This document shows positions 1,375 through 9,069 of a stretch of DNA of 9,495 bases, in pieces; positions within the stretch are counted from its first letter, which is position 1, and the number at the start of each line of letters is the position of its first letter. This DNA is from Octopus sinensis (lineage: Eukaryota), in NCBI RefSeq assembly GCF_006345805.1, contig NW_021827972.1:1-9495 (forward strand), read 5' to 3'. The notes below the pieces were generated by a model. The model saw only the letters and a program-made list of their open reading frames with translations, made no database searches and was not told where the DNA came from. The translations under genes and the position numbers were made by a program.

Positions 1375-1383
1375 ACGTACCTT
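1375..1383 (-). other. Candidate 5' splice donor of a 3'-UTR intron (AAG|GTACGT)
   Basis: The minus strand reads CCTTGAAAG|GTACGTAT 44 nt after the stop codon, and the sequence becomes microsatellite about 30 nt later. Confidence 0.5.
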
Positions 1384-1424: not shown

Positions 1425-3716
1425 TCAACCAATAATACCTCCTTCATCACGTGTTGGTCTATGGGTGGTGAACCACGGTCTATATTGTGTTGTCCACCAT
1501 CTTGGATGCCAGGTAGTGTACCGAGGTCTATATTGTGTTGTCCACCATCTTGGATGCCAGGTAGTGTACCGAGGTCTATATTGTGTTGTCCACCATCTTG
1601 GATGCCATGTAGTGTACCGAGGTCTATATTGTGTTGTCCACCATCTTGGATGCCAGGTAGTGTACCGAGGTCTATATTGTGTTGTCCACCATCTTGGATG
1701 CCAGGTAGTGTACCGAGGTCTATATTGTGTTGTCCACCATCTTGGATGCCATGTAGTGTACCGAGGTCTATATTGTGTTGTCCACCATCTTGGATGCCAG
1801 GTAGTGTACCGAGGTCTATATTGTGTTGTCCACCATCTGGGTGGCCAGGTAGTGTACCGAGGTCTATTGTGTGTGTCCACCATCTTGATGCATGTAGGGT
1901 ACCGAGGTCTATATTGTGTTGTCCCCCATCTTGGATGCCAGGTTGTGTAACCGAGTCTATATTGTGTTGTCCACCATCTTGGATGCCAGGTAGTGTACCG
2001 AGGTCTATATTGTGTTGTCCACCATCTTGGATGCCATGTAGTGTACCGAGGTCTATATTGTGTTGTCCACCATCTTGGATGCCAGGTAGTGTACCGAGGT
2101 CTATATTGTGTTGTCCACCATCTTGGATGCCAGGTAGTGTACCGAGGTCTATATTGTGTTGTCCACCATCTTGGGTACTGAGTGGTGTACCAAGGTCTAT
2201 ATTGTGTTGTCCACCATCTTGGATGCCATGTAGTGTACCGAGGTCTATATTGTGTTGTCCACCATCTTGGGTACTGGGTAGTGTACCAAGGTCTGTACTG
2301 TGTTGTCCACCATCTTGGGTACTGGGTGGTGTACCATGGATTGTAGCAAGGTGTTGCCCACCACCTCGGGTACTGGGTGGTGTACCAGGGTCTGTATCTA
2401 GTTGTCCTCCATCTTGGGTAGCTTGTAGTATACCACGGTCTGTATCTATTTGTCCTCCATCTTGGGTAGCTGGTAGTATACCAGGGTCTGTATCTAGTTG
2501 TCCTCCATCTTGGGTAGCTTGTAGTATACCAAGGTCTGTATCTATTTGTCCTCCATCTTGGGTAGCTGGTAGTATACCAGGGTCTGTATCTAGTTGTCCT
2601 CCATCCTGGGTAGCTTGTAGTATACCACGGTCTGTATCTATTTGTCCTCCATCTTGGGTAGCTGGTAGTATACCACGGTCTGTATCTATTTGTCCTCCAT
2701 CTTGGGTAGCTTGTAGTATACCAGGGTCTGTATCTAGTTGTCCTCCATCCTGGGTAGCTTGTAGTATACCACGGTCTGTATCTATTTGTCCTCCATCTAG
2801 GGTAGCTTGTAGTATACCACGGTCTGTATCTATTTGTCCTCCATCTTGGGTAGCTTGTAGTATACCAGGGTCTGTATCTAGTTGTCCTCCATCTTGGGTA
2901 GCTTGTAGTATACCACGGCCTGTATCTATTTGTCCTCCATCTTGGGTAGCTTGTAGTATACCACGGTCTGTATCTATTTGTCCTCCATCTAGGGTAGCTT
3001 GTAGTATACCAAGGTCTGTAACTATTTGTCCTCCATCTAGGGTAACTTGTGGTATACCAAGGTCTGTAATGCTTCGTTCTCCATCTTGGGTAACTCGTAG
3101 TGTACCACGGGTTGCATAGATTTGTCCACCATTGAGGATTACTTGTGGTGTACCACGGCCAGTTGGGAGTAGTACCCCATCTTGGGTAGTTGGTAGTGTA
3201 CCACGGCCAGTAGTTTGTTGTCCTCCATCTTGGGTAGTTGGTGGTGTACCAAGGTCTGTATTGTGTTGTCCACCATCTTGGGTAGTTGGTGGTGTACCTC
3301 GGCCTGTACAGAGTTGTACCCCATCTTGGGTAGTTGGTGGTGTACCAAGGCCAGTTGCGATTTGTACCCCAGTTTGGTGCAGGATGCTTGGCGATGATAT
3401 TAGACGAAGCCTCTGGTTTCCTCGTTGAGTTTTCTTGCTTCGTTTTTATAGTATCATTTCTTGCTTCCTTCTTTAGGTGACTACTATTGTTTTGTGTTAC
3501 TGCCGACTTCGAAGGAACAACAGTCGTAAACGAAGTCCCTGTGTCTTTCCTAACCAAATCCGGCGAAGACGGAGATTTAGAACTTCTTGCTATCTCGTGC
3601 AATATCTCTTCCGCATGTTCGGTGGCTGGGGAACTTGTTCTTTCTAGTTTCGCGTTGGTTCTAGACGAGAAGAAGCAGCACAGCCCAAATATCAGGAATG
3701 CGCGATAAAGCAACAT
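1425..3716 (-). CDS. Secreted Trp/Tyr/Arg/Thr/Pro-rich tandem-repeat protein (763 aa), unknown family
   Basis: ATG has a purine at -3 (AGACATG) and is followed by a signal-peptide-like N-terminus. A non-repetitive 123-aa N-terminus is open and in frame with a 39 x 16-aa array. Indels in the array preserve the frame, many unit differences are synonymous, the ORF ends in a double stop (TGA TAA), and a TATA box lies ~95 bp upstream. Confidence 0.9.
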   Translation of the reverse strand: MLLYRAFLIFGLCCFFSSRTNAKLERTSSPATEHAEEILHEIARSSKSPSSPDLVRKDTGTSFTTVVPSKSAVTQNNSSHLKKEARNDTIKTKQENSTRKPEASSNIIAKHPAPNWGTNRNWPWYTTNYPRWGTTLYRPRYTTNYPRWWTTQYRPWYTTNYPRWRTTNYWPWYTTNYPRWGTTPNWPWYTTSNPQWWTNLCNPWYTTSYPRWRTKHYRPWYTTSYPRWRTNSYRPWYTTSYPRWRTNRYRPWYTTSYPRWRTNRYRPWYTTSYPRWRTTRYRPWYTTSYPRWRTNRYRPWYTTSYPRWRTNRYRPWYTTSYPGWRTTRYRPWYTTSYPRWRTNRYRPWYTTSYPRWRTNRYRPWYTTSYPGWRTTRYRPWYTTSYPRWRTNRYRPWYTTSYPRWRTTRYRPWYTTSYPRWRTNRYRPWYTTSYPRWRTTRYRPWYTTQYPRWWATPCYNPWYTTQYPRWWTTQYRPWYTTQYPRWWTTQYRPRYTTWHPRWWTTQYRPWYTTQYPRWWTTQYRPRYTTWHPRWWTTQYRPRYTTWHPRWWTTQYRPRYTTWHPRWWTTQYRPRYTTWHPRWWTTQYRLGYTTWHPRWGTTQYRPRYPTCIKMVDTHNRPRYTTWPPRWWTTQYRPRYTTWHPRWWTTQYRPRYTTWHPRWWTTQYRPRYTTWHPRWWTTQYRPRYTTWHPRWWTTQYRPRYTTWHPRWWTTQYRPRYTTWHPRWWTTQYRPRYTTWHPRWWTTQYRPWFTTHRPTRDEGGIIG
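1476..3347 (-). repeat. Coding minisatellite: 39 units of 48 bp (one of 51 bp, one of 45 bp)
   Basis: Example plus-strand unit GTCTATATTGTGTTGTCCACCATCTTGGATGCCAGGTAGTGTACCGAG. The span is 1872 bp = 39 x 48. Protein units are WYTTNYPRWxTTxYxP, WYTTSYPRWRT(N/T)RYRP, WYTTQYPRWWTTQYRP and RYTTWHPRWWTTQYRP. Confidence 0.98.
3651..3716 (-). other. Predicted signal peptide MLLYRAFLIFGLCCFFSSRTNA (22 aa)
   Basis: Basic n-region (R), hydrophobic core AFLIFGLCCFF, and small residues at -3/-1 (T-N-A|K). Judged by eye, not by software. Confidence 0.8.
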
Positions 3717-3777
3717 GTCTAGCTTGGTTGTGTGCGTCAGCTATCCTGCGTGTCTTGCGAAACACGTCGCAAGTGGA

Positions 3778-3814
3778 CACTGGCGAAGAATTCCCAGACA
3801 GAATGCATTTTATA
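3778..3814 (-). promoter_or_regulatory. Candidate core promoter: TATAAAA (3814-3808) and Inr-like CCAGTG (A at 3781)
   Basis: A canonical TATAAAA lies 33 nt upstream of an Inr-like CCAGT and would give a ~65-nt 5' UTR with no upstream ATG. An E-box CACGTG is at 3855-3860. The CAG could alternatively be a splice acceptor. Confidence 0.6.
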
Positions 3815-3856
3815 AAACCGGGACGAGTATTGATCGCTCGCTTACAACCCATTCCA

Positions 3857-3883
3857 CGTGTGTGTGTGAGAGTAATGCAAATG

Positions 3884-5839: not shown

Positions 5840-6023
5840 TCAGGTTGAGTAAAAAGTAAGCAGCGTTTTGAACCATGAAAAACGTGTACCGGATTTTTGC
5901 TGGGTTTTGAATATTTAAAAAATACTTTTTGGGCAATCATCTGATAACAAAGACATAGATTTGCCCAAAGGCATCGATACATTAACATTGATATTGTTTT
6001 CACCGTTGTTACAATAATCTGAA

Positions 6024-6676
6024 ATGAAACTCTCAAAGCGCGATATTCGAGCAATTTTGCTATTTAACTTAAAAAAGGGACGTAAAGCAGCTGAAACTGC
6101 TCGCGATATCAACGAAATATTTGGTGAAGAAATGACCAGTGGGTGGTCAGCTCGAAAAGGGTTTAAACGATTTCACAGTAGAGACCTGAGCCTTAAAGAT
6201 CGTGAGCGTAGCGGACCCCCATCTGTCATCAATGACGGTCAATTAAAGACCGTCATTGAGAAAGATCCACGTAAAACCATTTGAGTACTGGCAAAAGAAC
6301 CTCAAGTTAGCTGGAAAACTGGCTGCAACCATTTGCGTGTGGCCAGAAGATCCAAAACCTCGACAAATGGGTAACACACGATTTGAATGAAAATCAGATA
6401 TGAAATTTGCCCATCACTTCTTTTCCGTAACCACACCGATCCATTTGTCGACCGTATTGTAACTTGCGATGAAAATGGATCCTTTAACAACAACAACAAC
6501 AACAACCCACAACAACAACAATAATAATATAATACTGATGATGATGATAATATAATAATAATAATAATAGTAATAGTAATAATAATAAATAATAATAATA
6601 ATAATATAATAATAATAATGATGATGAGAATAAATAATATAATAATAATAATAATAATAATAATGATGATGATAAT

Positions 6677-6717
<41 letters not shown>

Positions 6718-6745
6718 AAATAATAGATGATAATATGATAATATA

Positions 6746-6788
<43 letters not shown>

Positions 6789-6869
6789 GATATAATAATA
6801 ATAATATAATATAATAATAATAATAAAATAATAATATAATATAATAATAATAATAACGATGATTAGATG

Positions 6870-6931
<62 letters not shown>

Positions 6932-7462
6932 CGTTATTCGTAGTGGTTGGACCAAAATGAAGTACCGAAAAACTTCCCTAAACCCGAATTCTTCAAAAAG
7001 AAGGTTATGGTGACTGTTTAGTGGTGTATTGCTGGACTCATCCACCATAACTTCTTAAAACTCGGAAAAACCATTACTGCAAAAACATATTGCCCTGTAA
7101 TTGACAAAATAAACGAAAATCTGCTACTCCTCCGTCTCACAATGGTCAACAGAAGAGGACCAATCATTCTTCATGACGATACTCGACCACACGTTTCACT
7201 AATGATGCTCCAGAAGTTGAGAGAACTTGGTTACGAAGTTCTTCCCTACCCAGCTTATTCCACACACCTTTCGCCTACCGACAACCACTTTTTCTAGCAA
7301 CCTTGAGAGTTTCCTGCGAGAGAAGGAGTTTAAAGATCAAATCGATGTTGAAAGTGCGTCCAGTCCAAAGAACCCCAAATTCTTATCTTACCGGAATTAA
7401 CAAACTTGTAACTCGTTGGTAAAAAATGTACTGATTGTGACGGTACTTAATTTGATGAATAA
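6024..7462 (+). pseudogene. Mariner transposase pseudogene
   Basis: The N-terminal HTH (KAAETARDINEIFG) is followed, across stops and frameshifts, by LDKWVTHDL (WVPHEL motif), RIVTCDE, KKVMVTV*W, GPIILHDDTRPH, YSTHLSPTDNHFF (YSPDL motif) and TGINKLVTRW. There are 34 residues between the second and third catalytic Asp. Confidence 0.95.
6486..6928. repeat. (AAC)n/(AAT)n/(GAT)n microsatellite inside the transposase
   Basis: Directly visible between the WIL(Y) and KRYS*WLDQ codons. Confidence 0.98.
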
Positions 7463-7865
7463 AATTTCCTCATTGATGAAATATATTGGGAGGAATTTCA
7501 TGTTCCAAAACGTTGCCTACTTTTTACTCATTTCCCCCCCTTTTTCTACTTATTAGAGTAACTTCCTTTCTAGTCAACGATTTTTCATAGCGTCTGTTGC
7601 CATTAATAGTCGACAAGAATGTATCGTAGCTCTTCGCTCCAACATTCGAAACTCCGAGTACTATAATGACAAAATTTACTGATTGTTCTAAATTATAATA
7701 TCCTCTATTTATCAAATATCGAGGTCTCATTCTTTTGTTGTTACTTATTATTATTATTAAGTTTCATCCCGTACATTACAGCATTTTCTCTAAGAGGCTA
7801 ATACAGCTTATGTTGAATAGTTGCTATTAATCAGTTGAGGGAATTCTTCCACAGAAGAATCTAAT

Positions 7866-9023
7866 ATGGATCCTTACAGAATCCATTACTCAATAAAAAA
7901 ACATGCCTATACCATCCAGGGAACTATACTCTAAAAAACTACTGGAGAAAATTACGAATCTTAAACGTATGAGATGGAAGGTCTTCCATTACAACAATGA
8001 AGAGTTTATCACAGAGAACATATACCATGAAATGAAATCAAAGAAATTCCCTCCCAAAATGAATGACTTAGATGACTTCGAAACAGACCAAATTTCGTAA
8101 CACTTTTCAACAGAAACTGAAAAAAAGACATTAAAATCATAAAAAATTTCCCCATGATAAAACCAAGAACTTATAACAGCACATACTCACAATTCCTACA
8201 TAACAATATTATTAATAATTACACTAAAGCTAGACCGCAAGTTTATCAAGACATTAATAAAGAAGCTAGTATCATCACCGCTAGGTTTAAATTTGATAAA
8301 AGATAGAGATCCTTCCAAAGAAAGATGCCTTTATAACTATTAAGAATCATTAAAAGAACTTCCTAACTAATCCTAAATGCAGATTAATTAACCCTGCAAA
8401 ATCAGAAATTGGAATAATTAGTAAGGAAATTTTAATAAAAATCAATGCTAAATTTAGAAGGGCAACTAATTTAGTACAATGGTCCAATAGCATAGTCGTT
8501 AACTGGTTTAATGCAATTAGAGATAAGAATAAAGCAAGATTTACCCGATTTGATATTGTGGATTTCTATGCATCTATTTCTAGAAAACTGCGAGATAAAG
8601 CCCTCACTTTCGCAAGCGATTTTACAGAAACTAGTGAACAACGTAAGGATATAATCCTCCATTCTAGAGAGAGACCATACTCTTCAGTGAGAACACAGAG
8701 CGGGTCAAGACATCATACACAGACGGTTCTTTCGATGTGAGCATGGGGTCATATGATGGAGCAGGCATATGTGATTTCATTGGGCTGTTCCTGCTTGACA
8801 CTTTGGGAAAATCTTTTCCTGGTGTCTATTTCGCTATTTATAGGGATGATGCTCTAGGTTTAGCTAAGAATACCAATTGACCAGCGCAAGATCGGTTTAG
8901 GAAGGATATTATCCATCTTAAGAAAGCATTCGATCTTAGCATAACAATAGATACCAATTTGACGGTTGTCAATTTCCCTTGACGTATCTCTAGATTAATA
9001 AAAGAATATTTACAAACTCTATA
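7866..9023 (+). mobile_element. Decayed Penelope-like element reverse transcriptase (probably Naiad-type), 3'-truncated
   Basis: Conceptual translation across stops and frameshifts gives YSIK/NMPIPS..KRMRWK, AFITIKNH, PKCRLINPAKSEIG, FDIVDFYASIS, FDVSMGSYDGAGICDFIG, YRDD (8839-8850) and VVNF/LDVSLD. No GIY-YIG domain is retained. The clade call is from memory. Confidence 0.9.
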
Positions 9024-9069
9024 GTAGACGAAAACTGAATGAAGACCGTCGTATATATATATACATACA

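Follow-up and report, generated by a model that had tools for sequence, protein, structure and literature searches.

A predicted secreted repeat protein of Octopus sinensis rich in Trp, Tyr, Arg and Thr: a candidate precursor of an extracellular material

The unplaced contig NW_021827972.1 of the Octopus sinensis genome, analysed over its complete length of 9.5 kb (9,495 nucleotides (nt), hereafter the window), contains on its minus strand an open reading frame of 763 codons (3716-1425) which, judged from its sequence, is a real gene with a single coding exon. Its product, called here the Trp-repeat protein, is predicted to be secreted and consists mainly of 16-residue repeats; as far as searched, it is undescribed. 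By analogy with known material proteins, it is somewhat probable that the protein is a cationic-aromatic polymer that would condense outside the cell into a coat, a cuticle matrix or a glue. This function is proposed because the product would be an unfolded, secreted chain of high positive charge that has five aromatic residues per 16 and lacks a catalytic domain.

Gene structure and reading frame

The frame opens with a predicted signal peptide (amino acids (aa) 1-22, 3651-3716), called by hydropathy and the -3/-1 rule: a hydrophobic core at aa 6-16, with a peak 9-residue hydropathy of 2.79, precedes the sequence T-N-A|K at aa 20-23, a match to that rule. The predicted mature chain has 741 aa, a mass of 97 kDa and a pI of 11.1. 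It begins with a non-repetitive spacer of 102 residues (aa 23-124, 3345-3650), which is rich in Ser, Thr, Lys and Glu, has a net charge of about +5 and carries four N-glycosylation sequons (NNS 76, NSS 77, NDT 87 and NST 96) as well as all three dibasic sites of the protein (aa 56, 82 and 99). The repeat array (aa 125-748, 3344-1473) comprises 624 aa in 39 units of 48 nt, of which 37 are 16 aa long, one 17 and one 15; Tandem Repeats Finder reports a period of 48, 39.3 copies and 89% matches. Three blocks can be told apart on the minus strand: block A (aa 125-220, 3057-3344) with six divergent units and a net charge of +12; block B (aa 221-444, 2385-3056) with 14 units of the type YTTSYPRWRT(N/T)RYRPW, 24% Arg and a net charge of +53; and block C (aa 445-748, 1473-2384) with 19 units, mostly of the type YTTWHPRWWTTQYRPR, 17% Trp, 5% His and a net charge of +50. 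A tail of 15 aa follows, with the stop codon TGA and an adjoining TAA (1422-1472).

The array is composed of Thr (22.8%), Arg (18.3%), Tyr (15.7%), Trp (15.4%) and Pro (12.8%), the main units having, per 16 residues, five Trp plus Tyr, three to four Arg, three to four Thr and two Pro. Trp and Tyr together make up 31% of the array, or 49% when Arg is included, and Pro, Thr and Ser 38%; by mass, Trp accounts for 21% and Tyr for 19%, together 40%, with a predicted absorbance at 280 nm of 7.1 per mg/ml. Among the 624 residues there are one Asp, no Glu, two Lys and seven aliphatic residues, and the computed net charge is +115. The whole protein contains 13% Trp, 66 Thr-Thr pairs, two Met and five Cys in 763 residues, three of the Cys lying in the predicted mature chain. 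A preliminary description of this DNA, made from its letters, had listed a leader, an S/T/K-rich spacer of about 100 aa with sequons, 624 aa of 16-aa repeats dominated by these residues, almost no aliphatic residues, no acidic residue outside one unit and a net charge above roughly +100, and all of these points were borne out. The TATA box, the three blocks, the compensating indels at 1857-1997, the double stop and the splice-donor-like site are additions to it. A single-sequence AlphaFold2 model of aa 23-444 gave a predicted local distance difference test score (pLDDT) of 33 and no secondary structure; this weak model, made without an alignment, is compatible with a disordered chain.

The length of the open array proves nothing by itself, because most random repeats of this period are stop-free: of 20,000 random 48-mers with the same composition, 98% had one or more of the six frames open and 61% had at least three. 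Two more frames are indeed open across the whole array, one on the plus strand (1461-3119, Cys/Pro/Ser, 552 aa) and one on the minus strand (3445-1321, Gly/Thr/Pro/Gln/Asp), which extends past the donor-like site described below. Neither of these extra frames has a synonymous excess; they result from the codon pattern and can mislead gene prediction.

The frames were distinguished by the changes between units, counted on a minimum spanning tree built from the 21 distinct sequences among 34 clean units, after the exclusion of five of the 39 (the 17-aa unit, the damaged units and a neighbour). In the Trp frame 36 of the 79 changes are synonymous against 17.4 expected, a number reached in none of 2,000 randomisations, and 44 of the 79 fall at its third codon positions; the p-value is inexact since the units are related through gene conversion. 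The Cys frame has 26 synonymous changes against 25.5 expected, and the remaining sense frames fall short of expectation. An excess is also found in the mirror antisense frame of the same codon register (28 against 19.7, p = 0.013), together with six distinct stop codons. Seven of the 16 residue columns are invariant over the 34 clean units (Y1, T2, T3, P6, W8, T10 and P15), although at the DNA level just one of them is unchanged. This is the sequence pattern of purifying selection on the repeat peptide of the Trp frame.

Upstream of the array, the non-repetitive head provides 124 open in-frame codons, for which the chance is about 8e-4, and a TATA box (TATAAAA, 3808-3814, minus strand) is located 98 nt upstream of the ATG. 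The in-frame head, the TATA box and the excess of synonymous changes among units go beyond chance. The TATA element is part of a perfect 10-nt palindrome (3808-3817, TTTTATAAAA) and reads as a TATA box on either strand.

Near-identical sequence was found in public sequencing runs. The segment 3300-3800 is present in 20 runs with five organism labels from eight studies, none of which is recorded as RNA and 14 of which were guessed to be RNA; the contigs of four of them (X1, X7, X17 and X20) were compared over 3200-3880. Contigs of the unique head have a depth of 500-1,900 in X1 and about 950 in X7, but of about 4-5 in X17 and about 5 in X20. Because of this high depth, and because their contigs total only 77 Mb (X1) and 105 Mb (X7) against a genome of 2.72 Gb, we infer that X1 and X7 are transcriptomes with an abundant transcript of the gene. 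The contigs end upstream at 3784 in X1 (30 nt downstream of where the TATA box begins), 3768 in X17 and 3656 in X7, and run to 3813 in the genome-sized X20; the X1 end is a weak hint of the transcription start. The X1 contig covers 3595-3784 with no difference and no joint, so a 5' untranslated region (UTR) of about 68 nt (3717-3784), with neither an upstream ATG nor an intron, is likely.

No indel was found in the head in any of the four runs, and all seven joints in run contigs step by multiples of 48 nt, mostly with the array continuing; one X7 contig has lost 48 nt in frame. The seven coding differences in the head comprise four synonymous and three conservative changes, which is not significant (p = 0.054). 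That this is a real gene in the Trp/Tyr/Arg frame, and apparently a highly transcribed one, is supported by the synonymous bias, the head, the TATA box and the depth in X1 and X7.

Sequence searches and relation to known material proteins

A word-seeded search of 5.8 billion proteins at near, shorter and longer lengths (259, 6,184 and 538 candidates scored) returned none at E <= 0.01, and an exact look-up in the protein collection gave no entry for either the 763-aa product or the 552-aa one of the plus strand. On the frame, Pfam gave only Mucin PF01456 on the spacer, at 17.8 bits against a cut-off of 34.7, and searches of PDB sequences and Pfam recognised no enzyme or binding domain. The earlier expectation that no characterised family would match therefore holds for the five protein collections searched, Pfam and PDB. 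Several candidates were rejected. Searching 1.84 billion representatives with phmmer gave four matches (E 1.5e-5 to 5e-4) confined to the repeat part, which are unrelated repeats with spaced Trp; two matches to PDB sequences (E 0.044 and 0.2) are due to chance; the best ESM Atlas hit, a polysialoglycoprotein cluster at 0.79, lies under the level that shuffled proteins often reach; and among metagenome contigs one of 230 candidates passed, a chance match within a bacterial open reading frame, presumably of a glycosyltransferase.

No description of the protein was found in open-access text (supplements being outside the search), including by words from the repeat peptide, and the excerpts of PMC5995198, PMC12817120, PMC12734493 and bioRxiv 10.1101/2021.11.08.467834 hold nothing resembling it. 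Because near-identical sequence occurs in many public runs and yet is absent from the protein collections, annotation pipelines would seem to mask the gene. Lineage-specific low-complexity secreted proteins are frequent in molluscs, which tempers the surprise.

The Trp-repeat protein would work like the mussel coat proteins mfp-1 and Pvfp-1, while being a member of neither family. It resembles mfp-1 in its mass of about 100 kDa, its pI above 10 and its tandem short repeats of Tyr, Pro, Thr, Ser and basic residues behind a signal peptide and a non-repetitive head, and its 15 SYP triplets echo the mfp-1 decapeptide. It differs in lacking motifs of the AKPSYPPTYK type (no matches to KPSY, YPPT or PPTYK), in its unit of 16 residues, in the replacement of Lys by Arg and in its 15% Trp, a residue missing from the decapeptide. 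A further mark of mfp-1 is its 3,4-dihydroxyphenylalanine (DOPA) and hydroxyproline. In NaCl above 0.7 M the recombinant protein forms coacervates by itself, through cation-pi contacts of Lys with Tyr (PMC9999432).

The motif WxxW is associated with C-mannosylation of Trp, and neither WxxW nor WxxC occurs in the Trp-repeat protein. In Pvfp-1, Thr is O-glycosylated, Trp is modified to C-mannosylated (hydroxy)Trp, and only traces of DOPA are present (PMC4275877); this protein is cohesive, and poly-Trp is a stronger binding partner of poly-Lys than poly-Tyr is (PMC12721214). The likeness thus lies in a secreted molluscan protein with Thr O-glycosylation (here a predicted possibility), functionally important Trp, low DOPA and cation-pi cohesion (PMC4275877, PMC12721214), whereas there is no sequence match, and Arg is the cation here. 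Heavy O-glycosylation of Thr, as in Pvfp-1 or a mucin, is a serious possibility, and was underweighted in the preliminary description, since Pro, Thr and Ser form 38% of the array.

Reflectins share with the Trp-repeat protein a cephalopod origin, a cationic chain rich in Tyr, Arg and Trp, less than 2% aliphatic residues and disorder, with which the weak model above is compatible; condensation on charge neutralisation, a reflectin property, would also be expected. However, the Trp-repeat protein has no MDX5MD repeat, no conserved reflectin N-terminal motif (PMC11931252) and almost no Met or Asp, and it has a predicted signal peptide, sequons and 23% Thr, whereas reflectin platelets are intracellular. 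Suckerins and the histidine-binding proteins of squid beak are likewise repeat proteins secreted by cephalopods, and the materials made of them are hard or tough. Suckerins, however, consist of Gly/Leu/Tyr-rich M2 and Ala/His-rich M1 modules, in contrast to 1.6% Gly, 1.4% Ala and no GGY, GGL, GLY or GYG here, and the beak pentapeptide GHGxY/H (PMC11931252) is also absent. The distinction drawn earlier from reflectins, suckerins and beak proteins is therefore sound, as their defining motifs are missing, and those of mfp-1 are missing too.

Other comparisons are more distant. In KRMP, from Pinctada, and mfp-3, both secreted into a matrix, Trp likewise goes together with basic residues, but KRMP has about 10 kDa, with Lys-Trp and Gly-Tyr domains and a C-terminus of the RKYKY type (PMC3896809), and both its Gly-Tyr domain and its C-terminal motif are absent here, while mfp-3 has about 6 kDa and is non-repetitive. 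Tintinnidorin also uses Trp and Tyr as stickers, but it is acidic and folded and has 3.5-4.7% Trp (PMC13408134). That content was termed much above known proteinaceous biomaterials, and UV protection was proposed for it (PMC13408134); the Trp content found here is three to four times as high. Octovafibrin is, like the Trp-repeat protein, a secreted structural tandem-repeat protein of octopus, but consists of 29 disulfide-bonded epidermal growth factor (EGF) domains, in contrast to no EGF match and three Cys in the mature chain here. Multi-copy precursors of neuropeptides or antimicrobial peptides differ in their dibasic sites, of which the array has none, and gel-forming mucins in their von Willebrand factor D (vWD) or Cys-rich domains, absent from the frame (as read on this contig). 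Judged as a mucin Pro/Thr/Ser (PTS) domain, the array has its 38% of these residues beside 49% Trp, Tyr and Arg, and the PF01456 score stays below the cut-off.

Possible function and alternative explanations

In the proposed mechanism, the signal peptide would direct the chain to the endoplasmic reticulum, where the spacer may be N-glycosylated and many Thr possibly O-glycosylated, and the unfolded chain, with a charge of about +118 at pH 8, would stay dispersed, or loosely packed in granules, through repulsion. After release, the salt of seawater or sulfated glycans would screen the charge, and the evenly spaced Trp, Tyr and Arg might stick the chains together through cation-pi contacts, aromatic stacking and hydrogen bonds into a dense phase, with the fixed positions Y1, T2, T3, P6, W8, T10 and P15 setting the spacing of the stickers. 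The dense phase could wet or bind polysaccharide surfaces, such as chitin, and oxidative cross-linking of Tyr or Trp may harden the condensed material.

The preliminary description had also suggested an egg cement or string. Slime or cement of octopus eggs is described as mucoprotein and sulfated mucopolysaccharide (PMC8976471), and such a setting would suit a polycation. A role as the load-bearing part of the egg thread is unlikely in view of octovafibrin (PMC10336842). Occurrence in runs of at least five studies would agree no less well with a tissue that is often sampled than with egg slime.

Several points weigh against a condensing material. Conservation is seen only among sequences with an identity of about 98% or higher; the assignment of X1 and X7 to RNA is a guess, and their contigs show neither the strand nor the true level of a transcript. 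Dense O-glycosylation could block condensation and keep the chain soluble. In a model Tyr/Arg system, cation-pi contacts were not essential for phase separation (PMC13339138), and because of this result the driving force may differ from the one proposed. Finally, the egg thread of octopus is made of the EGF-repeat protein octovafibrin (PMC10336842).

Among the alternatives, an antimicrobial polymer or precursor is rather unlikely, though it fares best: its Arg/Trp-rich units, whole or cut by proteases, would disrupt microbial membranes on skin, on eggs or in saliva. The combination of Arg, Trp and Pro resembles the composition of the Trp/Arg-rich antimicrobial peptides indolicidin and tritrpticin, but the invariant Thr-Thr and Tyr positions are atypical of such peptides. 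Block B contains 13 minimal RxxR sites, one per unit, whereas the 19 units of block C have no RxxR, and the array has no dibasic and no strong furin site. Antimicrobial peptides of octopus do exist (PMC12734493), and antimicrobial and coat roles are compatible rather than exclusive.

A mucin-like glycoprotein, in which the Thr/Pro array would be a scaffold for O-glycans and a soluble component of mucus, its charge paired with acidic glycans, seems a little less likely again. Its share of Pro, Thr and Ser and the Thr-Thr pairs speak for this explanation, as do the single large repeat exon with a varying number of units (the X7 contig lacking 48 nt), the weak Pfam Mucin score on the head and the polysialoglycoprotein look-alike in the Atlas, whose 0.79 is under the level often reached by shuffled proteins. 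However, the 31% of Trp plus Tyr and the 18% of Arg do not belong in mucin PTS domains, the frame lacks any Cys-rich or vWD gel-forming domain, and the Pfam score is half of the cut-off.

It is improbable that the protein serves primarily as an optical or UV-screening material, whose very high refractive index and UV absorbance would be used in skin, eye or egg coverings, beside or instead of reflectins. The mass shares of Trp and Tyr and the predicted absorbance would suit this role; in reflectins such polarizable residues give the high index, and the proteins condense on charge neutralisation (PMC11931252), and UV protection was proposed for Tintinnidorin at just 3.5-4.7% Trp (PMC13408134). 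The lack of a reflectin motif, the two Met in 763 residues and the predicted secretion and glycosylation, unlike intracellular reflectin platelets, argue against it.

There is a slight chance that the frame is only the first coding exon or is mis-assembled, the protein continuing via a downstream donor or the array being much longer. A splice-donor-like site with eight of nine consensus positions (1375-1383, minus strand, junction 1381/1380) lies 44 nt past the stop and is the sole one scoring at least 8 between 900 and 3800; neither AATAAA nor ATTAAA occurs in the 1,424 nt downstream of the frame, and the unplaced contig ends 1.4 kb downstream. Within the array, three units (1857-1997) are damaged by single-base indels, probably errors of long-read assembly to judge from the unit sequences. 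But these indels sum to -3, which restores the frame and leaves its final part unmoved, and the units on both sides share one frame, so that the stop, an in-frame double TGA TAA, is independent of the errors. An intron in the 3' UTR, with the last exon beyond the contig end, would be likely on this sequence.

A non-coding minisatellite, or a gene in another frame such as the plus-strand Cys/Pro/Ser frame (1461-3119), is very improbable: minisatellites are often stop-free by chance, and similar ones reading W/Y/R occur elsewhere in the genome without gene features, but the synonymous excess lies in the Trp frame and not in the Cys frame, the mirror antisense frame combines its excess with six distinct stops, and the predicted signal peptide and the TATA box are in register with the Trp frame.

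Genomic setting and significance

The assembly comprises 2.72 Gb in 13,516 contigs, and the gene head and the 3' end are single copy in it. Queries with the repeats matched two and 12 other places (150 of 274 and 150 of 945 candidates scored). The first two loci were read fully and the 12 screened for frames of at least 90 aa with more than 5% Trp and Arg; five of the 12 had such frames, which are short minisatellite read-outs with different units, and none of the other repeat-like loci examined had the anatomy of a gene.

The gene stands alone on the contig; its flanks are microsatellites and dispersed repeats, and because dispersed repeats occupy both sides, the placement of the contig and the neighbours of the gene cannot be read. 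At 321-930 there is a high-copy dispersed element resembling a miniature inverted-repeat transposable element, with copies about 91% identical on many chromosomes; its part 321-790 matches its own opposite strand at 76%, forming an inverted repeat. A decayed mariner-type transposon (5850-7460) retains a Mos1 helix-turn-helix domain (PF17906, E 1e-11) at 6024-6281 and is split by a 450-nt (AAC/AAT)n microsatellite at 6486-6930. An old dispersed repeat with many genomic copies at 71-88% occupies 7540-9025; a YRDD-like stretch near 8840, noted by eye, suggests a decayed reverse transcriptase, one 64-aa piece of which has no Pfam match.

Elsewhere in the same genome, the molluscan hemocyanin domain PF14830 is matched 37 times. 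One functional unit scored 851 bits with PDB 1js8, which we take to be octopus hemocyanin, and 732 bits with the corresponding chain of 4yd9, presumably squid hemocyanin. This marks the host as an octopod and supports the cephalopod origin given in the preliminary description. The hemocyanin genes occur as three near-identical tandem copies on C5 (90.61-90.71 Mb) and an inverted pair on C28 (3.45-3.51 Mb) with identical scores, and appear to be recent duplications or an assembly duplication.

Cephalopod materials science rests on few families, namely reflectins, beak proteins, suckerins and octovafibrin. A more tentative and rather doubtful extension of the condensing-polymer reading is that the Trp-repeat protein would found a class of Trp-dominated animal biomaterials: an Arg/Trp polymer with an aromatic mass share of 40% that would need no DOPA to set in seawater, for example as the polycationic 'mucoprotein' from which a sulfated mucopolysaccharide would polymerise octopus egg cement, or as the matrix of an octopus chitin cuticle, that might also form a UV-absorbing and antimicrobial coat, and that gene catalogues missed as minisatellite-like. 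The gene also illustrates that an apparently abundant transcript can miss protein collections of billions of entries, likely through repeat masking. With 13% Trp overall and 15% in the array, apparently held by selection, the short, exact Trp/Tyr/Arg/Thr unit would be easy to make and may allow a direct test of Arg-Trp stickers in seawater.

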